Part shown: positions 2,046-20,312 of the stretch, in pieces | Numbering within the stretch: position 1 is the first letter of the stretch | How the letters are laid out: each line of letters starts with the position of its first letter | Origin: an uncultured Candidatus Saccharibacteria bacterium | GTDB taxonomy: Bacteria; Patescibacteriota; Minisyncoccia; Phycocordibacterales; UBA6065 | Reading direction: 5' to 3' | NCBI GenBank assembly: GCA_964368835.1 | Contig: CAYJCZ010000002.1 | Span: 83,893 to 147,892, forward strand | DNA length: 64,000 nt | The notes under the pieces: generated by a model | Told to the model about the DNA's origin: nothing | The model's database searches: none | What the model saw: only the letters and a program-made list of their open reading frames with translations | Translations under genes and position numbers: made by a program

Positions 2046-2152
2046 AGTAGGCTCTACAAGATCCGTCACAAACCATGTGGCGGATTTTTTTCTTTATATC
2101 CGGATCGGTACCCTTTGATTTTTCGTAAAAATATGATAATTTGCTAACACAT

Positions 2153-2223
2153 TGCCGGATCGTCTAAAGGTAGGACGTCGCTCTCTGAAAGCGAAAATTT
2201 TGGTTCGATTCCAAGTCCGGCAA
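2153..2223 (+). tRNA. tRNA-Gln (anticodon CUG)
   Basis: Cloverleaf folded by hand. Acceptor TGCCGGA/TCCGGCA is 7 bp with the U1-A72 pair typical of bacterial tRNA-Gln. D-stem GTCT/GGAC. Anticodon stem TCGCT/AGCGA with loop CTCTGAA (anticodon CTG). T-arm TTTGG-TTCGATT-CCAAG. Discriminator A; CCA is not encoded. Confidence 0.8.
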
Positions 2224-2224
2224 C

Positions 2225-2959: not shown

Positions 2960-2991
2960 ACTCAATTTAGTACAGTCGGCCTAAACGGTTA

Positions 2992-3561
2992 CTATTTATT
3001 TCGAAAGAAAGAAATCGCTTTTTGGAAAAGAGTTTGCTTTGGTTCTGGTGGGGGAGTGACTACTATTTTTTCAACGGATATTTCTGGAACAACAACAGGT
3101 GCAGGTTTCTTTGTAGTTTTTACTCGTAACTGTTTTTTTAATTCAAGATTTTCTTTTTTGAGTGCTGTAACCAATTTACGTTGTGCTTGTAATTTTTTTT
3201 CTAATAATTTATCAGGATCAGTAGATACTAGATTGTCGATAGTTTCTATTTGTTTTTGAAAAGCGGTTTGAGGCGTGTGAGTGTTTAATTTATTCTTTTC
3301 AATTTTTTCATTCCAATCGGTGAGTGTTCCCAGATCTTTGATGCCAAACTTCTTTGCAAATGCGGTCTGGTTTTTTAGCATTGCAATTTTTATGACAAGG
3401 GGATCAGTAAAACCGTACGACTGAAGCATCTCTTTTTTCATTCCTCGAAAATGTGCGGGTAAAGATTTCCACAAAACATACGTTTCGAACTCTTTTTCTT
3501 TATATGTAATTTTTTTGGCATTCTTTGGCATTTGATAATGATTGTACCAGAAAATTGGCAT
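2992..3561 (-). CDS. hypothetical protein (Lys-rich, predicted coiled-coil C-terminal half)
   Basis: 189-aa ORF with no recognisable domain. Confidence 0.5.
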   Translation of the reverse strand: MPIFWYNHYQMPKNAKKITYKEKEFETYVLWKSLPAHFRGMKKEMLQSYGFTDPLVIKIAMLKNQTAFAKKFGIKDLGTLTDWNEKIEKNKLNTHTPQTAFQKQIETIDNLVSTDPDKLLEKKLQAQRKLVTALKKENLELKKQLRVKTTKKPAPVVVPEISVEKIVVTPPPEPKQTLFQKAISFFRNK

Positions 3562-3600
3562 ATTCTATCCCCAGTTTTATCTAAAAAACCGTTATTTTTA

Positions 3601-3610
3601 TTGGTATAAT
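3601..3610 (+). promoter_or_regulatory. candidate extended -10 promoter element (TGgTATAAT) 12 nt upstream of the giant gene ATG
   Basis: TTGGTATAAT at 3601-3610, with no Shine-Dalgarno sequence before the ATG at 3622. This would give a very short or leaderless transcript. Confidence 0.3.
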
Positions 3611-3621
3611 TAGAACTAATC

Positions 3622-6600
3622 ATGCACTTTTCGAGACACCTTAAAAGAATAATTTTCTTTCTGGGCACAATAATTATTTTGTGCGGTTTTTTTTCTACAG
3701 TTTCTGCCGAGGAAATTACACCTGCTGCTACTGAAGCTGCACCTTCTGTCTCAGAAGTGACTGTGCCTAGTACAGATACAGCACCTGTTATCGAAGCTGA
3801 TCCAGCACCTGTCCTTGAAAATATTACAGAACCAACTACCGATGAAATTGTTTCCGCAGAAGTTACGACTGAAGAAGTACAACCAGAAGAAGTTACACCT
3901 GAGACCACAACTCCAGACGTTCCAGTAGTGACTGAAGAAGAATCAAACGCGTCACCTGAATCTGAGAATGAGGCAAATCAAATCCCTGTTGAAGAGGTTT
4001 TGAGTACACAGGAATCAAACGCAACAAGCTCAGAGTCTCAACAGCTTCCAGCTACAACGACAACGCCAACAGGTGATGTTTCAAATTTACCTACTCCATC
4101 CGTCTCTGACATAGTCATCGAACCGGTTTCAGAAATCGTTGCAACTTCAACACCCACATCGACTCCTGAAGTTGTTGAGGTTGTTCCACAAACCTCAACA
4201 TCAACTGCTCCGACAATTACTGAAGAGTTTGCAAACAACATCAAGACTGTCACAGTATCTTCAACACCAGAGCAAGATTTAATTGCGCCGATGGTCAATG
4301 TTCCCGTCAAAACAAAAATTTCTGAAATATTTAAAGTTGGTCAGGAGGATCAAATAAAAATTAAATGGCAGAACAATGGATACGAAGAGATGTCTTTTGT
4401 TGCAACAGATGAAGACGGTAACGGGTACATAGATCATGTCGCATGGATAGTTCCACACCTTTCCACACAGACGTTTGAAATTATTTTAATATCGAATGCA
4501 CTGCGTCTTGATGAGAATAAAAATGTACTCGAGGATATTTTTTCTGGTGTAGGTACTCTCGATCAGACATATGTAAGCCTGCTTAACGGTCAGTATATTC
4601 GAGCAACTTTTGAAAGAAGCCTCACGAGTGCTAATGACATTACTATATATGCGCGACCAACAGATAGTAATACTCCTGCAACAATAGAGGTTTATACCCA
4701 GGATGGTACACTCGTTGCAACTTTTTCTTCCATAGATCACGACGGTAGGTATCGTATTTTGCTTTCAGGTCTCGCAACCACAACAGATGTTTTCGATTTG
4801 AAAATAATTGGTAATGTGGATGTTGATTATGTAACTGACCCGCCAGCAAATGCATATTGGGTTGGCGGTACAGGAAATTGGTCTGATGCTGCAAACCACT
4901 GGGCAATTACATCAAACGGTGCTCCGGGCGCAGGTAACTTGCCAGATGCTACAACAAACGTATTTTTTGATTCGTCTTCAGGAGCCGCTTCAACAATTGT
5001 CACTATTGATACAGCCGCAACCGTTGGTTCTTTCACTATAAGCGGCTACACAGGAACAATCTCCCAGAACGATGATCTTACTATTACAAATTCGGGAGGT
5101 CAGACTGGAAATTATTCTCAAACATCTGCAGCTACATTTACTGCAATAGATCCTGGAACAAACACACTCACAGTGACAGGAAGTTTTGCTGTTACAGCAG
5201 GAACATTTCGTCGCTATACAGGTATAGGTAACAGCGCAGATCCTTTTTTGGTTTTCGATGTATACGGTTTACAGGGAATGAAGACAAACCTGTCGAGCTC
5301 ATACAAACTCAATAATGATATTGATGCTTCGGTCACGTCGGGTTGGAGCTCGGGTGCAGGATTTGATCCAGTTGGAAACGTAACAACTACTTTCTCTGGT
5401 ATTTTCGACGGTAATAATTTTTCGATCAGCAATCTATATATAAGTACGACAACCTCAAGCTATGTCGGACTCTTTGGATATTCTACAAACCTTGTAAAGA
5501 ACGTGACTCTTTCTGGTGTCTCGATTACTGCAACAAGCACGGCTGGTACGGTGGGTAGCACAGGTGCTAATGGAACCGACGGTGCTGCAACTTCTAACGG
5601 TGTTGCCGGCGGTGCAGGTACAGCAGGTAGCGCTCTATATTTAGGAGGCTTGGTTGGATACAACACGGGAACAATTACAAATGTAGCGGTCACGGGAAAT
5701 ATTCTTGGTACGGGTGGTGCTGGTGGAGCGGGTGGTAACGGAGGAAATGGTGGAAACATAACAACAGGTACAAACACTGGTGGTGCCGGTGGTGCGGCAG
5801 CAAGCAACGCAGCAGCAACTGGAGGTCTCGCGTATGTTGGTGGAGTCGTTGGATATTCTCAGCAAGGAAGCATAACAACTGCAACAAGTTCAGCTACGGT
5901 TACTGGTGTTGGAGGTGCTGGTGGTGCAAGTGGTAATGCTGGAAATGGAGGAAATGGATCTACCGCAGGAGTTGGTACGGGTATTGGAGGAGCGGGTGGA
6001 GCAGCTGGACTTCCAGGCGCAGGTAACATTGCATACGTTGGTGGTGTTGTGGGATGGCTTAACGCGGGAACAATCGATGTCTCTTATGCAACTGGAAATG
6101 TAACTGCAAGAGGTGGTGCGGGAGGTAATGCAGGAACATCTGGTACGGGCGGTAATGCAGGTGTTGGAGGAGGAGGTGCAAACATCGGTGGTATTGGTGG
6201 TGCTGGTGCTGCGGGTGGTGCGGCAGGTACAGCTTATGCTGGAGGTCTTGTTGGAAACAATTCAGGAACTATTGAAAATGGAAGTTACGCAACCGGAATA
6301 GTGCAATCAGCAGGAGGTGTTGCGGGCAATGCTTCTGCCGGAAGTGCAGGTGGTGCTTCTGCTGCTGCTTCTGTTGCGACTGCTGCATCGGGTGCAACGG
6401 CAACTGGTGGCGCGGGTGGAGCAGGTGCGATTGCATACGCTGGAGGATTGGTGGGTCAAAATAACACTCCTGGATTCATCGACGGTTCAATAGCAAACGT
6501 TTACTCAACTGGTGCTGTAACTGCTACCGGTTCTGCTGGAAAAAATGGAGCAGCTGGAGGTGCGGGAGGTAGCGCGTCACTTACAACGACTGGTACTGGT

Positions 6601-9600
6601 GGTGTTGGAGGTGCAGCGGGTGCTGGAGGTGCAGGTGGAGCTGCTTACAGCGGAGGATTGGTGGGAATAAATTTAGGATCAATTATCACAGCAAACTCTA
6701 CAGTCGGACTTGTGACAGTTGTCGGGGGTGATGCTGGAGTTGGTGGTACTGGTGGATCAGGAGGTACAAAGGGTTCTGCCGGAACATCTGGTGCGGGTGG
6801 TGCATCTGGTGCAGGTGGATCAGCTGCTGTTGTTGCTTCATACGCCGGAGGACTTATAGGAAGTAACGCCGGAACAGTTCGATATGCTTCATCAACAAAT
6901 GCAGTCACAGGTACAGCTGGCGCTGGTGGAGCTGGAGGTGCTGGTGTTGCTGCTCAAACTGGTCTTGCTGGTCTCGCCGGCGGAACTGGAGGTGCGGCGG
7001 GTATTCTATATATAGGAGGTGTCGCTGGTAATAACACTCTTGCTATTGTTGATAGCTATCACACAACTGGAAATATAACTGGTACTGCTGGTGTTGGCGG
7101 TGCAGCAGGTGCTGGTGGCGCGGGCGGTGCGTGGACTGGAGGTACTCAAGGTGCTGCGGGAACAGCGAACACTGGAGGCATTATTTATGCTGGTGGTGTT
7201 GTCGGTAACAACACAGGTACATCACTTCTTAATGTGTACTCGACAGTAGATGTAACGGGAACGTCAGGTGCAGGAGGCGCTGGTGCAAACGGTGGAAACG
7301 GATACACATTTACTACAGGTGTTGCTGGTGTTGTGGGAAGTGTTGGAGCAACTGGAGGTATCGCATATGTCGGTGGAGTTGTCGGATATGTAAACAACGG
7401 AGAAATTTCAAACTCATATTCAACCGGTGCTGTAACAGCAAACGGTGGTGTTGGAGGTGCAGGAGGTAATGGAGGAAATGGCGGAGCTGGAACTTCAAAC
7501 ACTGGAGGTGCCGGTGCAGCTGGTGCAGCCGGAGGTGCAGGTGGTGCCGCGTTTGGAGGAGGAGTTGCGGGGCAGATTATTTTAGGAACAGTAACAGGGA
7601 GCTACAACACTGGAGATATTATTGTTACCGCTGGTGCAGGTGGAGCTGCTGGAAATGGTGGAACCGGTGGAGTTGGCGGAACTAACTTTGCTGGTGGTGT
7701 AGGTGCGACTGCGGGTGCAGGAGGTGCAGGTGGTGTTGCGACTGCAGGTGGTGTTGCAGGACAAAGCGCCGGTGTAATTCAGTCGACATCATATTCAACA
7801 GGTGACGTTACAGCGACAGCTGGTACTGCGCAAGTTGGAGGTATAGGTGGAACCGGCGGAGCATCCGTTGGCACATTTGTTGGAGCTGCTGCGGTCGGTG
7901 GAGCTGGAGGTACCGGAGGAGCTGGTGCTATTGCATATGCGGCAGGTATTGTTGGTAACAATACGAACTCAATAATAAATTCCTATGCGAGTGGAACTAT
8001 TTTGGCGACGGCATCTGCTGGTGCTGCTGGTGGCGCTGCTGGACTTGGTGGTAGCAATGCATCAGGTGGAGCTTCGAGCACAGGTGCTGCGGGCGCAACT
8101 GGTGGAGCTGGAGGTGCGGGTGCCGTTGCTTATGCTGCTGGTATCGCGGGCTTAAATACAGCCTCACTAACTAATACATATATTGAGACAGGATCAGTTA
8201 CTTCTGTTGGTGGTAATGGAGGGGCAGGAATTATTGGAGGAGCTGCAGGTGTTGCGGGCACGGGAGCTCTCGGAGCAGCTGGTGGAACAGGAGGAGCCAG
8301 TGGTGTGGGTGCTATCGGATATGCCGGTGGTATCGTTGCGTTAAACTCTGCTGGAAACGTAAATGATTCACATGCGGATATTGCAGTTTCAGCAACTGGA
8401 GGATCTTCTGGTGCTGCTGGAGCTGGAGGTGCGGGTGGAGCGGGAGCAGCTGGTGGAGTTGGTGGAGCGGGTGTAGTTGGTGCTGCGGGATATGCGGGTG
8501 GACTCATTGGTATGAACACGGGTTCTATTCATGATTCGTATGCATCTGGTGATACTACCGCTATAGGTGGTGCTGCAGGTGCAAACGGCGGAGGTGGTAC
8601 TGGAGGTAACAGAGCAACTTCTGCCGGAGGTGCTGGAGGTGCTGCGGGTGCAACTGCAACAAACATCGGAGGTGTTGGTTATGCTGGAGGACTTGTTGGA
8701 TTTAATTCTACTAACGGAAACGTTCAGAATTCTTATGCAGTAGGAGATGTGTCTGCTACTGGTGGTGCTGGTACAAATGGTGCAGCAGGAGCAAACGGTG
8801 GAACTTCAACTGGAGCGTTTACTGGAGGTACTGGTATTGCCGGAGGTGTAGGAACAGCTGGTGGTGTTGCATCAGCGGGCGGTCTCATTGGTTTCAACAT
8901 TGGTGCCATAGCTTCTGATTCATATGCAAGCGGAAATGTTTCTGCTGTTGGTGGAGCTGGAGGACTCGGTGCTAATGGTGGAAATGGCGGTGCTTCTGGT
9001 GCCGGCATTGTTGGTGTTGCAGGTGTTACCGGAGGTACGGGTGGTGCTGGCGGTGCTTCTTATGCGGGAGGAGTTAATGGTAGCAACACTGCTATTGGTG
9101 TAACTATTACAATTCCAAATACAACAGGAACAGTCGCTTCAACTGGCGGTGCCGGAGGTAACGGTGGAACCGGAGGTAATGGTGGTGCTGGAGGAAGTAC
9201 AACTGGAGCAATTGGAGGTGCCGGAGGTGCTGCGGGTGCGGGAGGCGCTGGAGGATTGGCTGCAAGTGGTGGAGTTGCTGGACTAAGTAGCGCCGGAGTT
9301 ATTCGTGATCTTACCTATGCGATTACGACGGTAACTGCAACTGGTGGTGCTGCAGGAGTAGGTGGAGTTGGAGGTGATGCGGGCGCATCTGGAAATATTT
9401 CTGGAAGTGCGGGTGCAACTGCCGGAGCTGGAGGTAACGGCGGTGCTGGAGGTGCAGTTTATTTGGGTGGACTTGTGGGTGACAACACCGGTGTTATTGA
9501 AAATGTCATTGTGACTGGTAGCTTAAGTGCAACTGGAAGCAATGGTGGTGTCGGTAATGTTGGTGGTGTTGGTGGAAGTGGTTCGCTAGGCACTGGAGGC

Positions 9601-12600
9601 CACGCTGGTGGAATTGGCGGTGCTGGTGCAACTGGCGGTGCTGGTGGTGCGATGTATGTAGGAGGACTTGTTGGTCAAGGTAACGGAAATATTTCAAACT
9701 CTCGTGCAACGGGCGGTACTATCACAGTCACAGGAGCAAATGGTGCGGTTGGTGGCGCGGGATCTGCCGGAGGTGCAGGTGGATCTGGAAGTGGTAAAAA
9801 TGGTGTTGGAGGTGCAGGCGGAACAGGAGGCGCTATAGGTCCAGTCTATGCAGGAGGTGCAATTGGTTTTAATTCCGTCGCCTCTGTTCTTATTGATACT
9901 GTGTATTCAACAAATAATGTAACTGTTACAGCGGGTACAGCAGGTAATGGAGGTGCGGGTGTTGTAGGTGCTAATGGTGCTGCGGGAAGCATTGGTGGTG
10001 CTGGAGGCGCCGGAGGAGCGGTTGGTCTTGCCGTGTATGCTGGAGGACTTGAAGGTTACAATTCTGGAGCAGGTCATACGATTAAAGATTCTTACGCAAC
10101 AGGAAATATTACGGTCACAGGCGGTAATGGTGGAGTTGGTCAGGTTGGTGGCGCAGGAGCGAATGCAATAAGTGCAGTTGCTGGCGGTGCAGGAGCAACC
10201 GGAGGCGCTGGTGGCGCTGGTGGGTTTGCATATGGTGGAGGTCTTGCTGGATTTACCAACACCACTGTTTTAATTAGCGGTTCTCATGCTAATGGAAATG
10301 TAACTGTTACAGCAGGAAACGGAGGTAATGCCGGAAATGGTGGCGCGGGCGCAACCGGTGGAGCAGCTCAAGTGGGTGGTGCCGGTGGCGCGGGCGGTGC
10401 AGCTGGACTTGGAGGTGCATCATATGCCGGAGGTCTCGTAGGCTTAGTGAATTCAGGAAATATTTCACATGCATATTCAACAGGTGTAATTGCAGGAACT
10501 TCTGGTAACGGAGGAAATTCTGGTGCGGGTGGTGCTGGAGGTGCTGGAGGATCTGGTGTAGTGGGAACGATAGGAACAGTCGGAACTGTGGGTGCTTCAG
10601 GCGGAGTAAATTATACCGGTGGACTTGTTGGCGACAACACATCACATGTTTTAAATTCATATCACATTGTTGGTGCAGTAACTGCGACAAGTGGTAATGG
10701 TGGAATTGGAGGCGCTGGTGGTGCTGGTGGTGCATCTGGAACTATTACAAACGGTACAGCCGTTGCGGGAGCTGCGGGTGCTGCCGGCGGTGTCGGTGGT
10801 GCACTTTCTGTCGGAGGGTTGGTGGGAAGAAATGGTGTGACTGCACTTTCTGCCTCAATCACAAGTTCGTATGCAACGACAAGTGTTACAGCTATTGGTG
10901 GAAATGGAGGTGATGGTGGCGCCGGAGGTAATGCGGGAAATGGTGCTGCAGGTACAAATCATATTGGCGGAGCTGGAGGTGCTGCGGGTGCGGGAGGTGC
11001 AGCGGCAATTACTCTTGCTGCAGCAGTCCAAGCCGGAGGACTTGTTGGTCAAAATGTTTTGGGAACTATTTCTGCAAGCTATGCGGAAACTGGAACTGTA
11101 ACCGCTACCGGCGGAACAGGAGGAGCCGCTGCATCAGGTGGTACTGGTGGAGCAGGAACAGGTACTGCAATTTATGGAGTTGGCGGTGCAGGTGCAGCTG
11201 GTGGTGCAGGTGGTGCGGTGTATGCAGGAGGACTGGTTGGTTATACAACTGGCGTTGTTGAAGATGTATCGTATTCAAAGACAACACTTGATGTGACTGG
11301 TGGTAATGGTGCAAACGGCTCGGATGGATTAACTGCAGCAGCAAATAGTGGTGCTGCGGGAAGTGTTCCTGGTGCCGGTGGTGCTTCGGGAATTGTGTAC
11401 GCTGGAGGTCTTGCGGGTTATGCAACGGCTGATGTTATTTCTTCCTACGCTAGTTACGATGCTGGCTCAGGAAAAGGTAATATCACCGTAACAGGTGGAA
11501 CTCCGGGAAATGGTGGTAATGCTGGAAATGGCGGTTCTGGTTTGGCCGCTGGAGGCGCGGGTGGTGCAGGAGGAGTTGGTACACTTGGTATAGGTGGAGC
11601 GGCATCGGGTGCTTATGTTGGAGGACTTCTTGGATTTGGTTCAGGAGTTATTACTTCATCATATTCGACAACTCTAAGTATTTCAGGAAACGAGCATGCT
11701 GGTGGTACTGGTGGTACTGGTGGTGTGGGTGGAAGTGGCGGTACTGGTATTGGTGCATTCAACGGTGGAGTTGGTTCAGTGGGTGGCGCTGGTGGTGCTG
11801 GAGGTATTCGCGCTTACGGTGGACTCATTGGAGATTTCATATCAACAATCGGTACTATTCAGGGATTTTCATATTCAACAGTAAATATTTCTGTTACTGG
11901 TGGTAATGGTGGAAACGGCGGACAAGGAGGAGTTGGTGGAACATCAGGAGCAAGTCAATCATCGGGTACCGCGGCTGCAGCTGGTGTTGGAGGTGTGGGC
12001 GGCGCCGGTGCTCCAACGTATGGTGGCGGGTTGATAGGACGCATCACAGGAACTACACAGATCATGCGAGTTTCAAATTCAAGTGCAACTGGTGACGTGT
12101 CGGTCGTCGGTGGAAATGGCGGTAATGGTGGAGCAGGAGGTGTAGGTGGAAATGGTTCGACAGGAAGTGCTACTCATACTGGAGCTGCCGGAGGACTTGG
12201 TGGTGTTGCGGGAGTTGGCGGTGAAGCAGATGCTGGAGGACTTGTCGGTCTAAGCAACTTAACTTCTGGTTCGATTGATTACCTTTCTGTATTTACAACA
12301 GGAACTGTGAGCGCGACGGGTGGTAATGCGGGAACTGCAGGTACAGGTGGTGTTGGTGGAGCATCAGCAACAGGTGCAGCGGGTGGTGCTGGAGGCGGTG
12401 CCGTAGCATCTGCAGCGGGTGGTGCTGCTTACGCTGGTGGACTTATGGGAATTCATAGAGTTACTATCACTCCAGCAGGAAGCGGTATTATAAATTCTTA
12501 TGCAACCGGAGCGGTAAGTGCAACAGGTGGTATAGGATCAACAGGAAATACAGGTGGTGCTGCTGGAGTCGCTGGAACTATTGGTGGTGCCGGAGGTGCG

Positions 12601-15600
12601 GGTGGAGCATCGGGTATTGGAGGTGAAGCAGATGCTGGAGGACTCGTAGGTCTTACAAGCGTCACAACTGGATTTATTCATTACCTAAATAGCTATTCAA
12701 CAACAGGAAGCGTAACCGCGACTGGTGGTGCATCGGGTAATGGTGGTAACGCAGGCGCATCAACTGCAGGTGGAACTGGTGCTGGTGGTGCAACTGGTGC
12801 TTCGGGTGCAAGCTCTGCAGGTGGTGCCGCATATGCTGGAGGTTTGATCGCACAAACAAGTGCAACTGCAAGCAACAACTTATTAATCACAACAAGTTAT
12901 TCTACACGTGAGGTAAATGCAGTTGGTGGCGCATCGGGTAATGGTGCAAACGGTGTTGTCGGAGGTGCTGGTGGAACCTCTTCAATTGGTGGTGTCGGAG
13001 GTGCAGGAGGAGCTACGGGTGCGGGCGGTGCTGCATATGCTGGAGGACTCATCGGATCAAATGGAACAGCGGCTGGTGCCGGTGGAGGTACTATTGAAGA
13101 TAACTCATATGCATCTGGAATTGTAAATTCAACAAGTGGAAATGTTGGAACAGCTGGAACTGGTGCTGCTGCAGGTGCAAGCAATAGTGGTACTGGTACC
13201 ACTGCTGCAACTGGCGGCGTTGGAGGTGCTGCGGGTGCAGGCGGTGCAAGCTTTGCTGGTGGTTTGATTGCCAATAACGGAGCAACAGGAGTTGTTTTAA
13301 ATTCATACGCAACTGGTGCGGTTACATCTCTTGCAAGAAATGGTGGTGTGGGTGGACTCGGTGGTAACGGCGGAGACGCATCTGCTAGCACGGGTATTGG
13401 CGGTACGGGTGGCGCTGGAGGTGCTGCGGGTGCAGGTGGCGCAAGTTATTCAGGTGGACTTGTTGCGAACAACGTTAACGTTCTCAACACAATCACAACG
13501 AGCTATTCTACGAGCCCTACTGTAACAGGTACAAGCGGTAATGGTGGTGTGGGTGGCACGGGTGGTGATGGTGGAACACCTGGTACAGCTGTAGCTGGAG
13601 GTGCTGCTGGAGCTGGAGGTGCCGCGGGTGCCGGCGGAGTTTTATATACAGGTGGACTTATTGGTTTTAATAACGGTACGGTACAAACTTTCTCATACAC
13701 ACGGGCTAATGTGACTGGTACTGCGGGTGCCGGAGGTGCTGGAGGTATTGGTGGTAATGGTGCAAATGGAGCGGCGGGAACTTCTGGTGCTGGTGCAAAC
13801 GGAGGTGTTGGTGGAGCAGGAACAGCCGGAGGTGCTGGGGGTATTGGATATGGTGGCGGTTTTGTGGGTTGGCACAATACCTCACGAACAATTAGTGATT
13901 CATTTGCGACGGGAAGTCTTACTCTTTTAGGTGGAGCGGGAGGCGCTGGTGGTGTTGGCGGAAACGGTGGAAACGGTGGAGCTGGAGCATCAGCGGGAAC
14001 AGGAGGCATAGGAGGAGCAGCGGGTGCAAGCGGCGCAGGTACCGTTGGAGGTGTGAAGTATGGCGGAGGATTTGCTGGCTACAACTTGGGCACTATAAAT
14101 ACAGCGTACTCATTGGGATCAGTTTCTGTAACAGGAGCTTCTGGTGGTGTGGGAGGTAATGGAGGAAATGGTGGTGATGGTGGCAATGGCGGTCCAACTG
14201 GTGCCGGAGGTGCTGGAGGAGCGCAGGGTGCAACAGCGGCTGGTGGAGCTGGAGGTGCGCTTCATGCAGGAGGACTTGTCGGCTACAACTTCACAGCTGG
14301 AATTTTTTCAAATTCATGGACTGCAGGCACGGTGGTAACTGTTGGTGGAGCTGGTGGTAATGGTGGTGTGCGAGGTACATCCGGAACAGGAGGAAATGGT
14401 GGAACCGGAGCTGGCGGCGCAGGTGGAGCAGGTATTGCTGGTGGTGCTGGAGGCGCTGGAGGTGCAAGTAATGCCGGAGGTTTGGTTGGATCAAATATCA
14501 CGAGCGGTTCATTTAGTAATAGTTACGCATCGACGACGGTGACCATGACTGGTGGTGTTGGTGGAAATGGTGGCGTTGGAGGCAAAGGAGGTAATGGAGG
14601 TGTCGGTGGATCTGCTGGAAACGGCGGAGCTGGTAGCGTTGGATTGGTTGGTGGAGTTGGAGGTGTCGGTGGTGCTGTCACAGGAGGTGGTTTGGTAGGA
14701 GACAACACGGGAATAATCACAAATGCGTATTCACTTGGTAACGTAACTGCAACTGCGGGTACTTCAGGTACTGGTGGTACTGGTGGCGCTGGAGGAAATG
14801 GTGGTGCAGCAGGCGGAGCGAGTGCAGGTGCAAATGGTAACGGAGCAAACGGAGGCGCTGGAGGCGCTGGTGCGAACGCGTTTTCTGGAGGTCTTCTAGG
14901 AAGCCATGCTACTTCTCTAGTTTCAAATACATATTCAGTTGGTGTACCTGTAGCAACCAGAACATCTGGTGCGGCTGGAGGTGCTGCAGGTGCAGCTGGT
15001 ACAGGTGGCACGGGAGGAAGTGCTGGTAGCAGTGGTGCTGCCGGAGCTTCATCTGCTTTAGAGCGTGCCGGAGGTATAGTGGGAAATCCAGTGAGCGGTA
15101 CCTGGGCATCTAGCTATTGGGATAGGACAACATCAGGAAAAACTGATGGTGCTGGAAACGCAACTACACCAACTAATACGACAGGCAAACTAACATCAGA
15201 GATGAAAGAGCAGGCGACATTTACGAGCTGGGATTTTACCACTCTTCCTATTTGGAAAATTGCAGAAGCATCTACATATCCATATTTTAATTATCAAGTT
15301 GCCCCAGACGCTCCTACAAGCGTAGTTGCTGTTGCTGGAAACGGTGAAGCAACAATTACATTTATTCCACCAGCTAGTACTGGTGGAGGACCGATTTTGT
15401 CTTATACCGTTACATCAAGTCCTGGAGGATTTACGGCAATTGGAGGTTCATCTCCAATCACAATCACCGGACTCACTAACGGTGTTACATACACATTCAC
15501 TGTTACAGCTACAAATGCTTACGGGACAAGCATTTCGTCTGGAACAAGTAATTCTGTAACTCCTGCAACTGTTCCTGATGCGCCAACTATTGGCACTGCA

Positions 15601-18600
15601 ACCCGAGGAAACGGCGAGGCGACAATTACATTTACTCCACCTGTATCTAATGGTGGATCAGCAATTACGTACTACACAGTTTCATCAAACACTGGAGGAT
15701 TTGTCGCGTACGGCGGTTCATCTCCAATTACAATCACCGGATTAACAAACGGCCAGGCGTATACATTTACAGTTACTGCGACAAACGCTGTTGGAACGAG
15801 CACACTTTCTGCTACTACAAACTCTGTGACACCAGCTACTGTCCCTGATGCTCCAACTATTGGAACAGCAACAGGAGGTAATGGTCAGGCGACAATTACA
15901 TTTACTGCACCAGTATCAAACGGAGGTTCAGCTATAACCTATTACACTGTCACATCAAACACGGGAGGATTCACCACATATGGTGCTTCATCTCCACTTA
16001 TTGTGACAGGCCTTACAAATGGTCAGGCATACACGTTTACGGTCACCGCAACAAATGATGTTGGAACAAGCACTGTATCTAGTGCAACGAATTCTATAAC
16101 ACCAGCAACTGTTCCTGATGCGCCAACTATTGGTACTGCAACAGGAGGTAATGGTCAGGCAACAATTACATTCAGTGCACCAGTATCAAACGGCGGATCA
16201 GTAATCACGTACTATACAGTTTCATCAAACACCGGAGGATTCACCACATACGGTGCTTCATCTCCACTCGTCGTAACAGGTCTCACCAATGGTCAGGCAT
16301 ATACTTTCACCGTCACTGCAACAAACGCAGCTGGAACAAGTACTGCATCTGTTGCAACAAACTCTGTGACTCCAGCAACAGTCCCAGATGCACCTACAAC
16401 TGTTTCTGCTGTACGGGGAAATGGAGAGGCGACAATTACATTCAGCGCTCCATCTTCGAACGGAGGATCAGCGATCACATACTACACGGTCACATCTAAT
16501 GTTGGTGGATTAACTACATATGGTGCTTCATCTCCGCTTGTTGTAACAGGTCTTACAAACGGACAGGCATACACATTTACAGTCACCGCAACAAACGCAG
16601 TTGGAACAAGTACAGCATCAGTAGCAAGTAACTCAATTTCTCCAGCAACAGTTCCAGATGCACCAACCATCGGTACTGCTACAGCAGGAAATGGGGAGGC
16701 AACAATTACATTTACTCCGGGAGCGAGTGATGGATATTCATCAGTGTTGTATTACACCGTAAGTTCGAATGTTGGCGGGTTTGTTGTGTACGGTGGAGCT
16801 TCACCAATCATAGTTACAGGTCTTACAAATGGTAGTACATATAATTTCACCGTTACCGCCACAAACGCAGTTGGAACAAGCAGCGCATCAGTCGCAACAA
16901 ATTCTGTAACTCCTGTTACAAACCCAGGTGCACCGACTGGCGTTTCTGCAGTTAGTGGAAACGGTGAAGCAACAATTACATTTACAGCACCAGTATCAAA
17001 TGGTGGATCAGCAATTACGTACTACACCGTAAGTTCAAACGTTGGAGGATTCGTTGCGTACGGCGGTTCATCTCCGATTACACTTACAGGTCTCACTAAT
17101 GGCACGACGTATACGTTTACTGTCACTGCAACAAATGCCTTTGGGACAAGTACTGCTTCGGCTACAAGTAATTCCGTTGTTCCTGCGACGGTACCTAATG
17201 CACCAACTATTGGAACAGCAACAGGAGGTAATGGTCAGGCAACAATTACATTCAGCGCACCAGTATCAAACGGAGGTTCAGCAATTACGTACTACACCGT
17301 AAGTTCAAACACAGGAGGATTCGTTGCATACGGCGGTTCATCTCCGATTACACTCACGGGCCTTACAAACGGCCAGGCATACACATTTACTGTCACTGCA
17401 ACAAACGCAGCTGGAACAAGCACAGCTTCAAGCGCCACTAACTCTGTAACTCCTGCTACAGTTCCTGATGCTCCAACAAGTGTCTCTGCTGTGCGAGGAA
17501 ACGGCGAGGCGACAATTACATTCACCGCACCAGTATCAAATGGTGGTTCAACTATTACTAACTACGTTGTGACATCAAATACTGGTCTTACAGCAACAGG
17601 TGGTTCATCACCGATTACACTCACAGGCCTTACAAATGGCACAACATATACGTTTACTGTTGCTGCAGTGAATGCCGTTGGTACAAGTACTCCGTCAGCT
17701 ACTACAAACTCTATTACACCTGCAACAACTCCTGATGCGCCAACTATTGGCACAGCAACAGGAGGTAATGGTCAGGCAACAATTACATTCACTGCACCAG
17801 TATCAAACGGAGGTTCAGCAATTACGTACTACACAGTTTCATCAAACACTGGAGGATTCGTTGCGTACGGCGGCTCATCACCAATCACAATTACCGGTCT
17901 TACAAATGGCCAGGCATACACATTCACTGTCACCGCAACAAATGATGTTGGTACAAGCACTGCGTCTGTCGCAACGAACTCTATAACACCTGCGACAACT
18001 CCTGATGCGCCTACTATTGGTACAGCCACTGCTGGTAATGGACAAGCAACAATTACATTCAGTGCTCCAGTATCAAACGGCGGATCAGCAATTACGTACT
18101 ATGCGGTCACATCTAACACAGGTATAACTGCATACGGCGGAACATCACCAATCACAGTCACGGGACTTACCAACGGTGTTGCATATACATTCACTGTCAC
18201 AGCGACAAATGCTATTGGTACAAGCACTGCTTCAGTTGCAACAAACTCTGTAACTCCTGCAACTGTTCCAGATGCACCAACTAACGTCGCGGCTTCTATT
18301 GGAGACACAACTGCAGGTATCACATTCTCTGCTCCTGCAAATAACGGTTCTGCGATTACGTACTACACTGTGACTTCAAATACGGGCGGTCACTCAACAA
18401 CAACCTATTCAACGTCCGCAACGATGACCGGACTCACTAACGGTGTTACGTACACATTCACTGTTACCGCAACAAATGCTATCGGTACAAGTACTGCGTC
18501 TGGTACAAGCAACGGCATAACCCCGGCAACTGTCCCAGGAGTTCCTCTTAACCTTGCTGCTACTGTGGGAGACAGCAGTATTGATTTGTCGTGGTCAGCA

Positions 18601-19701
18601 CCAGTATCAAACGGAGGTTCAGCGCTTACAGATTATGTTATTGAATACAAGCTAACGAGCGGTGGTACATGGTCAGTATTCTCTGATGGTATCAGCACAA
18701 CGCCAGCAACAACTGTCACAAGTTTGTCGAATGACAATTCGTATGACTTCAGAATTTATGCAAAAAATATAATTGGAACAAGCACAGCTTCTACTGAGGT
18801 TAGTGCAACTCCTGGAGCACCGGCTCAGGTCTTGATCCAGAGCTTCTCTAATTTGCTCACTCCAACAATTGCAACTAATGTTCGAATAACAAACGAAGGT
18901 TCTACTGCTTACGAATATCAGTACACATGGTGTATCACTGACTCAGCAATAAATCTTTGCGGTGGTGGCGACGATGTGTTTAGTTCAACAGCTGCAAAAT
19001 TGATTCAGTCTGGTGAAGATTTTGACACCACACTCAATTCTACTGTTGCGCTTGCAGGAAATTATTATTTCCACATTAACGCGCTCTTCGGTTCAGATTC
19101 ATCAAGTGCAAATCAGTCATTTACCGCTGTTTCAAGTGGAGCAACTGAACCTGACGCACCAACAATTGGAACTGCAACTGCAGGTAATGGTGAGGCAACA
19201 ATTACATTCACCGCACCGGTATCTGATGGCGGATCAGTAATTACGTACTACACGGTTTCATCAAATACAGGAGGATTCATAGCATACGGAGCTTCTTCTC
19301 CAATCACAATCACCGGACTAACAAACGGCCAGGCATATACATTCACAGTGACCGCAACTAACGCGATCGGTACGAGTACGGTATCTAGCGCGACGAATTC
19401 AGTAACACCAACCGCATCAGTGACATCTGGAGGAGGCGGAGGTGGGGGCGGAGGCGGGGGTGGAGGAGGCGGATCTCCAGCGCCTGTGGTAACAAATAAT
19501 GAGTGTGTTGGAGCTGACTTCAACCATGACGGAAAAGTGAACTCAGTAGACTTCTCAATCATGCTTGCATTCTGGAAGTCATACGCGCCTGCAAAAAATG
19601 GGTGCGTGGATGCAAATAAAGACAAGCAGGTAAACTCAGTAGACTTCTCAATCTTGCTCTACCAGTGGGGCAAGAATCCTGCATTATTTAAAAGAGAATA
19701 A
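3622..19701 (+). CDS. giant secreted surface protein (5,359 aa): signal peptide, acidic T/P/E-rich region, about 50 Gly-rich GLUG-like repeats, 14 fibronectin type III domains, poly-Gly linker, C-terminal dockerin
   Basis: Single uninterrupted ORF. N-terminal signal/TM region RIIFFLGTIIILCGFFSTVSA. Repeating unit GG(L/V)VGxNxGxIxNSYxTGxVTxxGGxGG...GGAGGAG (GLUG-motif-like). 14 Fn3 repeats of about 92 aa (PATVPDAPTIGTATGGNGQATITF...LTGLTNGQAYTFTVTATN). A run of 16 Gly. C-terminal DFNHDGKVNSVDFSIML / DANKDKQVNSVDFSILL duplicated calcium-binding dockerin segments. Confidence 0.9.
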   Translation: MHFSRHLKRIIFFLGTIIILCGFFSTVSAEEITPAATEAAPSVSEVTVPSTDTAPVIEADPAPVLENITEPTTDEIVSAEVTTEEVQPEEVTPETTTPDVPVVTEEESNASPESENEANQIPVEEVLSTQESNATSSESQQLPATTTTPTGDVSNLPTPSVSDIVIEPVSEIVATSTPTSTPEVVEVVPQTSTSTAPTITEEFANNIKTVTVSSTPEQDLIAPMVNVPVKTKISEIFKVGQEDQIKIKWQNNGYEEMSFVATDEDGNGYIDHVAWIVPHLSTQTFEIILISNALRLDENKNVLEDIFSGVGTLDQTYVSLLNGQYIRATFERSLTSANDITIYARPTDSNTPATIEVYTQDGTLVATFSSIDHDGRYRILLSGLATTTDVFDLKIIGNVDVDYVTDPPANAYWVGGTGNWSDAANHWAITSNGAPGAGNLPDATTNVFFDSSSGAASTIVTIDTAATVGSFTISGYTGTISQNDDLTITNSGGQTGNYSQTSAATFTAIDPGTNTLTVTGSFAVTAGTFRRYTGIGNSADPFLVFDVYGLQGMKTNLSSSYKLNNDIDASVTSGWSSGAGFDPVGNVTTTFSGIFDGNNFSISNLYISTTTSSYVGLFGYSTNLVKNVTLSGVSITATSTAGTVGSTGANGTDGAATSNGVAGGAGTAGSALYLGGLVGYNTGTITNVAVTGNILGTGGAGGAGGNGGNGGNITTGTNTGGAGGAAASNAAATGGLAYVGGVVGYSQQGSITTATSSATVTGVGGAGGASGNAGNGGNGSTAGVGTGIGGAGGAAGLPGAGNIAYVGGVVGWLNAGTIDVSYATGNVTARGGAGGNAGTSGTGGNAGVGGGGANIGGIGGAGAAGGAAGTAYAGGLVGNNSGTIENGSYATGIVQSAGGVAGNASAGSAGGASAAASVATAASGATATGGAGGAGAIAYAGGLVGQNNTPGFIDGSIANVYSTGAVTATGSAGKNGAAGGAGGSASLTTTGTGGVGGAAGAGGAGGAAYSGGLVGINLGSIITANSTVGLVTVVGGDAGVGGTGGSGGTKGSAGTSGAGGASGAGGSAAVVASYAGGLIGSNAGTVRYASSTNAVTGTAGAGGAGGAGVAAQTGLAGLAGGTGGAAGILYIGGVAGNNTLAIVDSYHTTGNITGTAGVGGAAGAGGAGGAWTGGTQGAAGTANTGGIIYAGGVVGNNTGTSLLNVYSTVDVTGTSGAGGAGANGGNGYTFTTGVAGVVGSVGATGGIAYVGGVVGYVNNGEISNSYSTGAVTANGGVGGAGGNGGNGGAGTSNTGGAGAAGAAGGAGGAAFGGGVAGQIILGTVTGSYNTGDIIVTAGAGGAAGNGGTGGVGGTNFAGGVGATAGAGGAGGVATAGGVAGQSAGVIQSTSYSTGDVTATAGTAQVGGIGGTGGASVGTFVGAAAVGGAGGTGGAGAIAYAAGIVGNNTNSIINSYASGTILATASAGAAGGAAGLGGSNASGGASSTGAAGATGGAGGAGAVAYAAGIAGLNTASLTNTYIETGSVTSVGGNGGAGIIGGAAGVAGTGALGAAGGTGGASGVGAIGYAGGIVALNSAGNVNDSHADIAVSATGGSSGAAGAGGAGGAGAAGGVGGAGVVGAAGYAGGLIGMNTGSIHDSYASGDTTAIGGAAGANGGGGTGGNRATSAGGAGGAAGATATNIGGVGYAGGLVGFNSTNGNVQNSYAVGDVSATGGAGTNGAAGANGGTSTGAFTGGTGIAGGVGTAGGVASAGGLIGFNIGAIASDSYASGNVSAVGGAGGLGANGGNGGASGAGIVGVAGVTGGTGGAGGASYAGGVNGSNTAIGVTITIPNTTGTVASTGGAGGNGGTGGNGGAGGSTTGAIGGAGGAAGAGGAGGLAASGGVAGLSSAGVIRDLTYAITTVTATGGAAGVGGVGGDAGASGNISGSAGATAGAGGNGGAGGAVYLGGLVGDNTGVIENVIVTGSLSATGSNGGVGNVGGVGGSGSLGTGGHAGGIGGAGATGGAGGAMYVGGLVGQGNGNISNSRATGGTITVTGANGAVGGAGSAGGAGGSGSGKNGVGGAGGTGGAIGPVYAGGAIGFNSVASVLIDTVYSTNNVTVTAGTAGNGGAGVVGANGAAGSIGGAGGAGGAVGLAVYAGGLEGYNSGAGHTIKDSYATGNITVTGGNGGVGQVGGAGANAISAVAGGAGATGGAGGAGGFAYGGGLAGFTNTTVLISGSHANGNVTVTAGNGGNAGNGGAGATGGAAQVGGAGGAGGAAGLGGASYAGGLVGLVNSGNISHAYSTGVIAGTSGNGGNSGAGGAGGAGGSGVVGTIGTVGTVGASGGVNYTGGLVGDNTSHVLNSYHIVGAVTATSGNGGIGGAGGAGGASGTITNGTAVAGAAGAAGGVGGALSVGGLVGRNGVTALSASITSSYATTSVTAIGGNGGDGGAGGNAGNGAAGTNHIGGAGGAAGAGGAAAITLAAAVQAGGLVGQNVLGTISASYAETGTVTATGGTGGAAASGGTGGAGTGTAIYGVGGAGAAGGAGGAVYAGGLVGYTTGVVEDVSYSKTTLDVTGGNGANGSDGLTAAANSGAAGSVPGAGGASGIVYAGGLAGYATADVISSYASYDAGSGKGNITVTGGTPGNGGNAGNGGSGLAAGGAGGAGGVGTLGIGGAASGAYVGGLLGFGSGVITSSYSTTLSISGNEHAGGTGGTGGVGGSGGTGIGAFNGGVGSVGGAGGAGGIRAYGGLIGDFISTIGTIQGFSYSTVNISVTGGNGGNGGQGGVGGTSGASQSSGTAAAAGVGGVGGAGAPTYGGGLIGRITGTTQIMRVSNSSATGDVSVVGGNGGNGGAGGVGGNGSTGSATHTGAAGGLGGVAGVGGEADAGGLVGLSNLTSGSIDYLSVFTTGTVSATGGNAGTAGTGGVGGASATGAAGGAGGGAVASAAGGAAYAGGLMGIHRVTITPAGSGIINSYATGAVSATGGIGSTGNTGGAAGVAGTIGGAGGAGGASGIGGEADAGGLVGLTSVTTGFIHYLNSYSTTGSVTATGGASGNGGNAGASTAGGTGAGGATGASGASSAGGAAYAGGLIAQTSATASNNLLITTSYSTREVNAVGGASGNGANGVVGGAGGTSSIGGVGGAGGATGAGGAAYAGGLIGSNGTAAGAGGGTIEDNSYASGIVNSTSGNVGTAGTGAAAGASNSGTGTTAATGGVGGAAGAGGASFAGGLIANNGATGVVLNSYATGAVTSLARNGGVGGLGGNGGDASASTGIGGTGGAGGAAGAGGASYSGGLVANNVNVLNTITTSYSTSPTVTGTSGNGGVGGTGGDGGTPGTAVAGGAAGAGGAAGAGGVLYTGGLIGFNNGTVQTFSYTRANVTGTAGAGGAGGIGGNGANGAAGTSGAGANGGVGGAGTAGGAGGIGYGGGFVGWHNTSRTISDSFATGSLTLLGGAGGAGGVGGNGGNGGAGASAGTGGIGGAAGASGAGTVGGVKYGGGFAGYNLGTINTAYSLGSVSVTGASGGVGGNGGNGGDGGNGGPTGAGGAGGAQGATAAGGAGGALHAGGLVGYNFTAGIFSNSWTAGTVVTVGGAGGNGGVRGTSGTGGNGGTGAGGAGGAGIAGGAGGAGGASNAGGLVGSNITSGSFSNSYASTTVTMTGGVGGNGGVGGKGGNGGVGGSAGNGGAGSVGLVGGVGGVGGAVTGGGLVGDNTGIITNAYSLGNVTATAGTSGTGGTGGAGGNGGAAGGASAGANGNGANGGAGGAGANAFSGGLLGSHATSLVSNTYSVGVPVATRTSGAAGGAAGAAGTGGTGGSAGSSGAAGASSALERAGGIVGNPVSGTWASSYWDRTTSGKTDGAGNATTPTNTTGKLTSEMKEQATFTSWDFTTLPIWKIAEASTYPYFNYQVAPDAPTSVVAVAGNGEATITFIPPASTGGGPILSYTVTSSPGGFTAIGGSSPITITGLTNGVTYTFTVTATNAYGTSISSGTSNSVTPATVPDAPTIGTATRGNGEATITFTPPVSNGGSAITYYTVSSNTGGFVAYGGSSPITITGLTNGQAYTFTVTATNAVGTSTLSATTNSVTPATVPDAPTIGTATGGNGQATITFTAPVSNGGSAITYYTVTSNTGGFTTYGASSPLIVTGLTNGQAYTFTVTATNDVGTSTVSSATNSITPATVPDAPTIGTATGGNGQATITFSAPVSNGGSVITYYTVSSNTGGFTTYGASSPLVVTGLTNGQAYTFTVTATNAAGTSTASVATNSVTPATVPDAPTTVSAVRGNGEATITFSAPSSNGGSAITYYTVTSNVGGLTTYGASSPLVVTGLTNGQAYTFTVTATNAVGTSTASVASNSISPATVPDAPTIGTATAGNGEATITFTPGASDGYSSVLYYTVSSNVGGFVVYGGASPIIVTGLTNGSTYNFTVTATNAVGTSSASVATNSVTPVTNPGAPTGVSAVSGNGEATITFTAPVSNGGSAITYYTVSSNVGGFVAYGGSSPITLTGLTNGTTYTFTVTATNAFGTSTASATSNSVVPATVPNAPTIGTATGGNGQATITFSAPVSNGGSAITYYTVSSNTGGFVAYGGSSPITLTGLTNGQAYTFTVTATNAAGTSTASSATNSVTPATVPDAPTSVSAVRGNGEATITFTAPVSNGGSTITNYVVTSNTGLTATGGSSPITLTGLTNGTTYTFTVAAVNAVGTSTPSATTNSITPATTPDAPTIGTATGGNGQATITFTAPVSNGGSAITYYTVSSNTGGFVAYGGSSPITITGLTNGQAYTFTVTATNDVGTSTASVATNSITPATTPDAPTIGTATAGNGQATITFSAPVSNGGSAITYYAVTSNTGITAYGGTSPITVTGLTNGVAYTFTVTATNAIGTSTASVATNSVTPATVPDAPTNVAASIGDTTAGITFSAPANNGSAITYYTVTSNTGGHSTTTYSTSATMTGLTNGVTYTFTVTATNAIGTSTASGTSNGITPATVPGVPLNLAATVGDSSIDLSWSAPVSNGGSALTDYVIEYKLTSGGTWSVFSDGISTTPATTVTSLSNDNSYDFRIYAKNIIGTSTASTEVSATPGAPAQVLIQSFSNLLTPTIATNVRITNEGSTAYEYQYTWCITDSAINLCGGGDDVFSSTAAKLIQSGEDFDTTLNSTVALAGNYYFHINALFGSDSSSANQSFTAVSSGATEPDAPTIGTATAGNGEATITFTAPVSDGGSVITYYTVSSNTGGFIAYGASSPITITGLTNGQAYTFTVTATNAIGTSTVSSATNSVTPTASVTSGGGGGGGGGGGGGGGSPAPVVTNNECVGADFNHDGKVNSVDFSIMLAFWKSYAPAKNGCVDANKDKQVNSVDFSILLYQWGKNPALFKRE
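5540..15110 (+). repeat. tandem coding repeats (about 190 nt period) encoding Gly/Ala-rich GLUG-like modules
   Basis: About 50 successive, diverged copies of the GGLVGxNxG...GGAGGAGG module visible in the translation. The GGN-rich DNA generates many spurious antisense ORFs. Confidence 0.8.
15290..19420 (+). repeat. tandem 276-bp coding repeats encoding 14 Fn3 domains (array interrupted by a unique domain at about 18800-19140)
   Basis: Near-identical nucleotide repeats (for example ...ggtcttacaaacggccaggcatacacatttac...) that translate to Fn3-like 92-aa units. Confidence 0.85.
19428..19475 (+). repeat. (GGN)16 tract encoding a poly-Gly16 linker
   Basis: gga gga ggc gga ggt ggg ... ggc gga; the linker sits between the last Fn3 domain and the dockerin. 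Confidence 0.9.
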
Positions 19702-19703
19702 TT

Positions 19704-20312
19704 ATGACTAAAACAACAGTATCCTATTTTGCGGCAGCGATGTTACTCCTATTCATCCCAGGCCTTCCAAAGGGCTTGTTTGCAGCCGAATTGTCTTTTG
19801 AGCCAATTTTGAGTGCGGGTAGTAGTACACCTACGGTAATTGAGGTTCGAATTGATCCCCAGGCAAAGAGATTAAATGTTGTTGAGGGTGTAATACGATT
19901 TTCCGGCGAGCCATCAGATGATTTATTTGTCGAGGTAGAGAATGGTCAATCGATTTTGCCCATCTGGCCAACTCCACCGCAGTACAATAAAGACAAGAAA
20001 TCTATAAGTTTTACCGGTGGAATTCCTAATGGTTTTGATTCTCCCGGCTTACTTTTTAGAGTGCGTATTTCTTCGGCTGTTTCTGGCGATGTGACTGTTT
20101 CGTATAGTGATGGGAATGCGTACCTAAATGACGGAAAGGGAACGACGGAGGCTGTGGACTCTAAGCCGATCACAGTACATGTTGATAAGACGTTAGAAAA
20201 TGCTAAAACCAAGCCTTCATCTGGTTATGGTACATATGTTATAATTCTTCTATCAATTTTGGTCGTTCTTATAGTTATTTTCAAATATGGCTTTAAAAAA
20301 AATGACAAGTAG
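19704..20312 (+). CDS. membrane-anchored cohesin-like domain protein 1 (signal peptide, cohesin-like beta-sandwich, C-terminal TM anchor)
   Basis: Starts 3 nt after the giant gene stop. Signal peptide AAAMLLLFIPGLPKGLFAAE. The domain contains VRID...KRLNVVEGVIRFSGEPSDDLFVEVENGQSIL...SISFTGGIPNGF...LLFRVRISSAVSGDVTVSY, a cohesin-type pattern (F..D.L.V....G / GGIP / FkV.a..G...i.f). C-terminal helix YVIILLSILVVLIVIF followed by KYGFKKNDK. Confidence 0.65.
   Translation: MTKTTVSYFAAAMLLLFIPGLPKGLFAAELSFEPILSAGSSTPTVIEVRIDPQAKRLNVVEGVIRFSGEPSDDLFVEVENGQSILPIWPTPPQYNKDKKSISFTGGIPNGFDSPGLLFRVRISSAVSGDVTVSYSDGNAYLNDGKGTTEAVDSKPITVHVDKTLENAKTKPSSGYGTYVIILLSILVVLIVIFKYGFKKNDK

Follow-up and report, generated by a model that had tools for sequence, protein, structure and literature searches.

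The question raised by this locus is what kind of protein is encoded by a single gene of 16 kb in a bacterium with a small genome, and how such a protein could be held at the cell surface. The stretch analyzed here, referred to as the window, comprises 64,000 nucleotides (nt) of contig CAYJCZ010000002.1 (positions 83,893 to 147,892 of the forward strand) from the GenBank assembly GCA_964368835.1 of an uncultured Candidatus Saccharibacteria bacterium. It contains a giant open reading frame (ORF) on the plus strand (3622..19701) encoding a protein of 5,359 amino acids (aa). Patescibacteria, or candidate phyla radiation (CPR) bacteria, are ultra-small, mostly uncultured and thought to be attached to host cells, and a gene of 16 kb would take up a sizeable share of their small genomes. 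To our knowledge, it is largely unknown how members of the Parcubacteria group contact their hosts. The giant protein is probably a Sec-exported fibrillar adhesin or spacer that is anchored on the patescibacterial (CPR, Parcubacteria-group) cell by a cohesin-dockerin pair. Together with the two genes behind it, the giant gene forms a three-gene cassette built from known parts, namely a GLUG beta-helix, Fn3 domains, a dockerin and cohesins. A description of this giant-protein family was not found in the literature on GLUG and on CPR giant or dockerin proteins.

A sequence-only reading of this DNA had proposed a single ORF encoding about 50 GLUG-like glycine-rich modules, 14 Fn3 domains, a poly-Gly linker and a dockerin. 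This overall architecture was largely right, but the unit lengths, sequence identities, glycine share and poly-Gly count needed correction. The frame is uninterrupted over its whole length, with no internal stops. Its 49 tandem GLUG modules of 56-72 aa each lie at 5587..15186 (+; aa 656-3855), and a self-trained hidden Markov model (HMM) recognizes 49-50 consecutive modules from aa 607 or 656 to aa 3855. The diverged tandem modules are thus as proposed, while the measured median spacing of about 65 aa (range 56-72) replaces the suggested unit of about 63 aa. The module logo reads G-a-a-Y-A-G-G-L-V-G-x-N..T-G-T-I-x-N-S-Y-A-T-G-x-V-T-a-T, followed by five GG(A/N/T) triplets, about five variable residues and four GGA triplets. 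Correspondingly, the autocorrelation of glycine positions has one maximum at lag 3 (r = 0.35; standard deviation after shuffling 0.018) and another at lag 66. Glycine accounts for 25% of the whole protein rather than the 35-40% claimed before, and reaches 30-43% only inside aa ~750-3750. The array of 3,200 aa is nearly uncharged, with 51 D/E and 27 K/R residues (78 charged residues in total), and contains 14 Pro, 38 Asp and no Cys.

The assignment to GLUG is based on the repeat motif, the cassette leader, the cap and the predicted fold. The Pfam family Glug (PF07581) scores 34 bits on aa 601-1800, above its cut-off of 20.5. Taken singly, 15 of 48 modules match it (best E-value 3.1e-6); further along, no match at E<=0.01 was obtained for aa 1801-3000 or for aa 3001-4000. 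In front of the array lies a cassette leader (4882..5586, +; aa 421-655, including a first degenerate coil) with the motifs WxGGxGxW..NW, TGTIsQN, DVYGLQ, DIDAS, FDGNxxxIsnL and YVGLFG, which shares 39-46% identity with the sequences that lead into every GLUG block in P0127, an unrelated giant protein (BLASTP E-value 2e-37). At the other end, the array is closed by a C-terminal cap (15097..15303, +; aa ~3826-3894) of the form SSYWD..TSG..GKLTSEMKEQATFTSWDF..IWK..STYPYF, in its canonical form SSYWD..TSG..EMK..WDF. A tblastn search recovered the same cap in GLUG proteins of 67 loci from dozens of bacterial and archaeal phyla. The giant protein carries both the canonical leader and the canonical cap, and its modules are predicted to form a right-handed beta-helix; its repeat period departs from the canonical 26-35 aa. 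On these four grounds of motif, leader, cap and fold, it is one of the GLUG-cassette proteins.

The spacers between the GLUG cores had been likened to beta-roll or collagen-like segments, a comparison that the composition of the array does not support. An RTX beta-roll consists of GGxGxDxUx nonapeptides with calcium-binding Asp residues, and the GGxGxD motif is absent from the array with its 38 Asp. A collagen-like triple helix was rejected as well, since glycine occupies two of three positions instead of one of three and only 14 Pro occur in 3,200 aa.

The structure of a GLUG segment, for which a beta-helix or beta-roll fold had been suggested, was predicted with AlphaFold2 for five modules (aa 3325-3669), and a beta-helix fold was obtained. 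The alignment consisted of 45 five-module windows of the same protein, and the model reached a predicted local distance difference test (pLDDT) value of 83.4 and a predicted template modelling (pTM) score of 0.77. Secondary structure assignment with DSSP placed four short strands in each GLUG core. The spacers of 40 residues contain none; they are predicted with pLDDT values of 80-93 though they are neither strand nor helix. The predicted fold resembles GLUG beta-helices, with 147 aligned residues corresponding to about 5 x 29. A Foldseek search of the rod against the PDB gave no significant match. In the solved pneumococcal IgA1 protease, GLUG motifs recur every 32-34 residues, and its GLUG-bearing domain has been described as a beta-helix (PMC7695701). 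Because strands occur only in the cores, strands need partners that DSSP also assigns as strands, and the aligned length equals about five times 29 residues, we infer from the model that the GLUG coils stack directly and that the GGX segments form lateral excursions. For PGRS domains, polyglycine-II sandwiches have been proposed (PMC9436101). Given their GGA/GGN triplets and their ordered prediction as neither strand nor helix, the spacers are possibly polyglycine-II-like in the same manner.

For the evolutionary history of the array, 185,579 species genomes were scanned with the junction between cap and Fn3 as query. This revealed 11 close loci with 64-87% identity, all from metagenome-assembled genomes (MAGs) of Patescibacteria/CPR whose labels read Saccharibacteria, Parcubacteria, Wolfebacteria or Paceibacteria. 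Nine of the 11 loci have an unbroken orthologous frame throughout the DNA covered, which extends for 10 kb upstream and 4-5 kb downstream. When the 3,229-aa array of the window was aligned with eight of these nine, it matched all eight end to end and in register, with 59-85% identity compared to about 40% out of register and with 6-85 gap positions over ~3,230 columns. Wherever the array is complete, it consists of 48-50 modules, and its length is 3,205-3,232 aa in the eight aligned species. Only two features vary among the orthologues, the number of Fn3 domains (11-17) and the length of the poly-Gly tract (0-16). Since the alignment is end to end and in register across eight relatives, the array appears to be old, with each module having its own orthologue. 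Judged by these alignments, it is ancient and length-conserved, with no sign of concerted evolution or collapse. The suggestion that repeat numbers may differ between cells or assemblies thus applies to the Fn3 domains and the poly-Gly tract and not to the GLUG array, with one more distant exception. This relative (L001; GCA_037975565.1, contig JBBCBH010003404.1, 98 kb) has an array of ~12.2 kb (4818-16986) with ~61 modules. Its orthologous gene is split into dozens of small ORFs by frameshifts, which are probably long-read errors. A 2.6-kb offset seen with blastn was rechecked with the HMM in three forward frames, and the array proved to be genuinely longer.

Searches with the modules themselves were less informative about the family. 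A homologue search with five modules returned six fragmentary orthologues, as low-complexity words saturated the list, and led to L001 and the junction protein P0004. An exhaustive profile search with a 63-position module gave 20,076 matches, mostly canonical GLUG arrays covering profile positions 1-30/37. The CPR orthologues are absent among the best 150 of these matches, possibly due to bias filters or fragmented ORFs, and the match count is no measure of the frequency of the family. Only two otherwise unrelated large proteins, P0225 (1,848 aa) and P0165 (2,098 aa), showed GGX-rich spacers behind a small number of GLUG modules; the N-terminus of one of them resembles, by eye, those of haemagglutinin or two-partner-secretion proteins. 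The spaced GLUG variant may have arisen more than once.

An ORF of this size and repetitiveness could also be an assembly artefact, either chimeric or a collapsed repeat. The sequence is repetitive and glycine-rich, fragments of the head region are found on short database contigs, and contigs from short reads end within the (GGN)15 tract behind the last Fn3 domain (19429..19473, +). This tract encodes 15 glycines, one fewer than the G16 linker read before, and is a putative flexible hinge. Two short-read Logan contigs (L081 and L082), which match the window at 100% identity, have their first positions at 19465 and 19468 within the tract, which marks it as a recurrent short-read assembly breakpoint and may explain the frequent fragmentation of orthologues in databases. 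However, the longest exact DNA repeat is only 44 nt in the giant gene and 23 nt inside the GLUG array, and paralogous repeats share only about 40% identity at the protein level and 60-80% at the DNA level. Moreover, the array recurs in register and from end to end in eight MAGs that were assembled independently, and the 3' end (18704-21312) is matched at 100% identity by three contigs, each from its own sequencing run (ERR4405439-41); the two contigs that begin inside the tract are among these three. An artefact is therefore considered extremely improbable, and the earlier concern that near-identical DNA repeats would be prone to collapse or copy-number change does not hold for these diverged repeats.

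The cap is followed by the Fn3 stalk, for which the predicted count of 14 domains was confirmed by the Pfam family fn3 (PF00041) with 335.8 bits over 14 stretches. Domains 1-13 (15304..18804, +; aa 3895-5061) and domain 14 (19150..19419, +; aa 5177-5266) are units of 89-90 aa. This corresponds to a DNA period of 267-270 nt instead of the 276 bp given before. Nor are the units near-identical: ten of them are in register, with an ungapped DNA identity of 64-85% and a protein identity of up to 91%, and Tandem Repeats Finder reports 74% matches. The remaining units are lower in identity, partly due to shifts of one aa and partly due to real divergence, as in unit 13. Between domains 13 and 14, the expected unique Cys-containing domain was located as an insert of 115 aa with two Cys (18805..19149, +; aa 5062-5176). 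It is the most conserved segment of the giant protein, with 73-92% identity across the 11 orthologues, and always adjoins the anchor end. Neither Pfam nor NCBIfam gave a match for it, and no homologue outside the family was detected.

How the giant protein might be retained at the cell is indicated by its C-terminus and the two genes that follow it. The proposed C-terminal dockerin is borne out by a type-I-like domain at 19516..19656 (+), which matches Dockerin_1 (PF00404) with 28.4 bits against a cut-off of 22.9 and contains two canonical calcium loops, DFNHDGKVNSVD and DANKDKQVNSVD, of the form D-x-[ND]-x-[DN]-x-x-x-[ND]-x-x-D. It is conserved in all orthologues, and no other dockerin-like calcium-loop pair occurs within the 64-kb window. 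A side observation concerns a Cys pair that brackets the first loop (C-[VI]-G-A-D-[FL]-N ... C-[VA]-D-x-N; 19495-19620, aa 5292-5328). It is present in eight of 12 proteins (window, L002, L003, L005-L007, L011 and L056), the other four having neither Cys, and this conservation suggests a disulfide-stapled dockerin.

Directly downstream, two membrane-anchored cohesin proteins are predicted. The first (19704..20312, +; 202 aa) consists of a signal peptide, a cohesin at aa ~28-165 and a transmembrane helix at aa 171-199. The second (20287..21771, +; 494 aa) comprises a signal peptide, a cohesin at aa ~29-183, a DUF7743-like region, a transmembrane helix at aa 383-419 and a charged tail predicted to be cytoplasmic. 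In both cases the signal peptide and the C-terminal transmembrane helix were assigned by hydropathy. The two proteins are paralogues that share an N-terminal domain of ~150 aa with 26-30% identity, for which the nine-stranded jelly-roll fold of cohesins was predicted. In the wider family, the Pfam family Cohesin is matched by six of 40 homologous members (best E-value 3.6e-9), and for four of the listed homologues a PF00963 annotation had been precomputed. Both genes follow the giant ORF in the same order in all 11 orthologous loci. Based on domain identity, gene adjacency and conserved synteny, the dockerin most likely binds the cohesin of one or both downstream proteins.

The combination of a dockerin and cohesins also allows for a cellulosome-like system, in which the cohesin proteins would act as scaffoldins for several dockerin enzymes and the giant protein would be a cargo for polysaccharide capture. 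A gene for a GH5-like protein 2.6 kb downstream fits this idea. It encodes 769 aa (22920-25229) with a weakly matching GH5 cellulase-like domain (36 bits) and, judged by eye, a hydrophobic segment at the N-terminus. However, this protein has no dockerin, and its gene shows no synteny with the giant gene in the relatives. Neither a catalytic domain nor a carbohydrate-binding module (CBM) was found in the giant protein, each cohesin protein has one cohesin and its own transmembrane anchor, and the giant protein's dockerin is the sole one in 64 kb. We regard a cellulosome-like system as quite improbable. A second large surface protein in the window (47338-52488; 1,716 aa), with four to five PKD domains, lacks a dockerin motif and hence probably does not dock on the cohesin proteins.

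The N-terminal part of the giant protein begins with a Sec-type signal peptide (3622..3711, +; aa 1-30, ...FFSTVSA|EE), recognized by sequence and a hydropathy scan and with a presumed cleavage site; according to that scan, it is the sole hydrophobic segment of the protein. It is followed by an acidic low-complexity segment rich in Thr, Glu, Val, Pro and Ser, as defined by composition (3712..4296, +; aa 31-225; net charge -36). This segment has no Pfam match and is a putative flexible distal tip. A family-specific head region (4297..4881, +; aa 226-420) precedes the leader. Only 11 homologues of the head were found in the databases, all of them short fragments on short contigs that resemble the N-termini of the orthologues.

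From these parts, a mechanism for the favoured anchored fibre can be outlined. The giant protein would be exported by Sec, with cleavage of the presumed signal peptide, and has no membrane anchor of its own. Its C-terminal dockerin, placed behind the Gly15 hinge, would dock on the membrane cohesins and thereby keep the C-terminus at the cell surface. Outward from this anchor would follow the 115-aa domain, the stalk of 14 Fn3 domains, the GLUG rod and finally the head with the acidic Thr/Pro/Glu-rich N-terminal tip in the distal position. The rod would be a rigid, unbroken GLUG-type right-handed beta-helix of ~50 coils, and the ~37 residues of GGA/GGN triplets per coil may pack as polyglycine-II-like hairpins on its flank, thickening and stiffening it. 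With textbook values of 4.8 A for a beta-helix coil and ~3.5 nm for an Fn3 domain, the fibre would be ~75 nm long with one coil per module, or ~120 nm if the spacers also coil. Such a fibre would most likely act as a fibrillar adhesin or spacer, establishing contact with a host cell or a substrate or gauging it. As CPR bacteria are host-dependent epibionts and the layout is that of fibrillar adhesins, contact with a host or substrate is the most likely role. The earlier guess of a fibrillar spacer or adhesin thus remains the best-supported reading and is strengthened by the adjacent cohesin anchors.

The main rival keeps the same architecture and anchoring and assigns a different task to the fibre. 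It would be a structural coat or spacer, such as a palisade or S-layer-associated fibre, that sets the thickness of the envelope, excludes phages or predators, or fixes the distance to the host. The frozen length of the array, in eight species whose sequences differ by up to 41%, suits a ruler or spacer better than a tether, and an almost uncharged array surface and a head with no recognizable binding domain point in the same direction. On the other hand, the Fn3 stalk varies between 11 and 17 domains, so the total fibre length is not fixed, and the more distant relative with ~61 modules shows that the array can be longer. In addition, a stalk with a unique distal domain and a proximal anchor is generally known as the typical layout of fibrillar adhesins. 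A purely structural coat is hence thought to be unlikely, though it deserves consideration. A further and somewhat more doubtful reading concerns the inserts. It holds that the GGA/GGN inserts of ~50 modules might join side by side into one continuous polyglycine-II sheet, two layers thick and composed of ~100 left-handed helices. The spacing of these helices would match the 4.8-A rise of the beta-helix, which would act as their template. With its frozen module number, the fibre would be a molecular ruler for the distance between CPR epibiont and host, kept on the cell by a dedicated cohesin-dockerin socket. If true, this hybrid of beta-solenoid and polyglycine-II fibre would be a repeat-protein architecture with no solved example.

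Several observations weigh against the anchored adhesin or spacer preferred here. No homology to a binding domain was detected in the head region by searches of Pfam, NCBIfam and PDB sequences, which means that the term adhesin is an argument from architecture. The two cohesin proteins of the window have no match to Pfam Cohesin (PF00963), even at E<=10, nor to any NCBIfam family, and a search of PDB sequences with a cohesin profile ranks two Ruminococcus cohesins first at E-values of only 0.1-0.2. The multiple sequence alignment behind the rod model was made solely of internal repeats of the giant protein itself. Finally, the Foldseek matches of the rod include antifreeze proteins with polyproline-II bundles (7jjv, E-value 1.8e-3, and 2pne), which are not significant (probability ~0.4, TM-score 0.1-0.25) and may reflect composition alone. 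These matches, together with a flat, repetitive ladder of Thr residues (most coils contain V-T-x-T) and the glycine-rich sheets, would suit a surface that binds the lattice of ice or mineral crystals, comparable to antifreeze or ice-adhesin proteins built as beta-solenoids or polyproline-II bundles. However, matches of this type are generic for solenoids or for composition and rank far below the GLUG matches, and the record titles of the relatives contain no pointer to icy habitats. Binding of ice or minerals is thus very improbable.

If the anchored fibre is confirmed, it would be a candidate attachment or spacing apparatus for CPR bacteria, with an array conserved module for module in at least nine species and its own pair of membrane cohesin sockets. 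The use of cohesin-dockerin pairs would be extended to the anchoring of a giant non-enzymatic fibre. The analysis also indicates that divergent cohesins that are invisible to Pfam can be recovered through structure prediction. The array further indicates that a long repeat can be evolutionarily frozen instead of recombining. A structure of its regular GLUG-plus-GGX repeat could show how segments of the polyglycine-II type join beta-solenoids.

Apart from this cassette, the window contains several other genes. Upstream, a secreted protein of 183 aa (597-1148) ends with a VPDSG-CTERM sorting signal (PF18205, 28.5 bits), and a protein of 244 aa (2153-2959) has a DCD (Development and Cell Death) domain (PF10539, 76 bits), with a tRNA-Gln(CTG) at 2153-2224 directly before its ORF. 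For an RNase J ORF, an exact look-up gave no match, probably due to an over-extended start. Downstream, the region 25713-35734 has a series of genes related to nucleic acids and the cell wall; it encodes a Pif1-like helicase, an M23 peptidase with CBM96, a DEAD-box helicase, a double ABC ATPase, a PLD-family protein and a NERD nuclease-like protein, and might be a defence or mobile region.

In comparison with known systems, the giant protein resembles fibrillar adhesins in its long repetitive stalk of Fn3 domains and beta-helix, its unique distal N-terminal region and its proximal C-terminal anchoring module. It differs in that its distal region matches no known adhesive domain and in that it is predicted to be anchored non-covalently, through a dockerin-cohesin pair, where fibrillar adhesins use LPXTG/sortase or an outer-membrane barrel. 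With PGRS domains and the polyproline-II-bundle antifreeze proteins it shares runs of three to five GGA/GGN triplets that are predicted to be ordered and neither strand nor helix. However, only three of 48 modules match the PGRS family PF21526 (E-value ~0.58), and the GGX runs are short inserts interleaved with GLUG coils rather than a free-standing sandwich. As no match in sequence or structure was significant, the similarity is an analogy and not a membership. PE_PGRS proteins were rejected as a family assignment, as Pfam scans over the full length of the giant protein revealed no PE domain and the PGRS match is weak.

GLUG beta-helix cassettes are found in large surface proteins of bacteria and archaea, among them the N-terminal beta-helix of streptococcal and Gemella M26 IgA1 proteases (PDB 7jgj, 6xjb and 7uvk) and BACOVA_03286 (3n6z). 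Canonical cassettes have a period of 26-35 aa, a glycine content of 13-24% and usually 5-15 coils each, and most cap-sharing loci outside the CPR clade for which a period was counted fall into these ranges of period and glycine content. The giant protein, in contrast, has ~37 aa of GGX triplets after every coil, which roughly doubles the period. Within the CPR clade, the glycine content is 28-36% and ten of the 11 loci have a period of 64-73 aa, while the truncated L010 gave a period of 90. A further difference is that ~50 coils form one unbroken cassette that is conserved by position, with no protease or other catalytic domain.

For the anchor, the closest points of comparison are the type-I cohesins of OlpA and OlpC from C. 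thermocellum (3ul4 and 4dh2) and the cohesin of A. fulgidus (2xdh). The cohesins of the window are too divergent for Pfam, and their carriers are anchored by a C-terminal transmembrane helix, not by S-layer homology (SLH) domains or sortase. The predicted system differs from the known cohesin-dockerin anchoring of cellulosomal and non-cellulosomal proteins in its CPR host, in its cargo, a non-enzymatic fibre of 5,359 aa, and in the arrangement of two paralogous single-cohesin anchors beside this one cargo.

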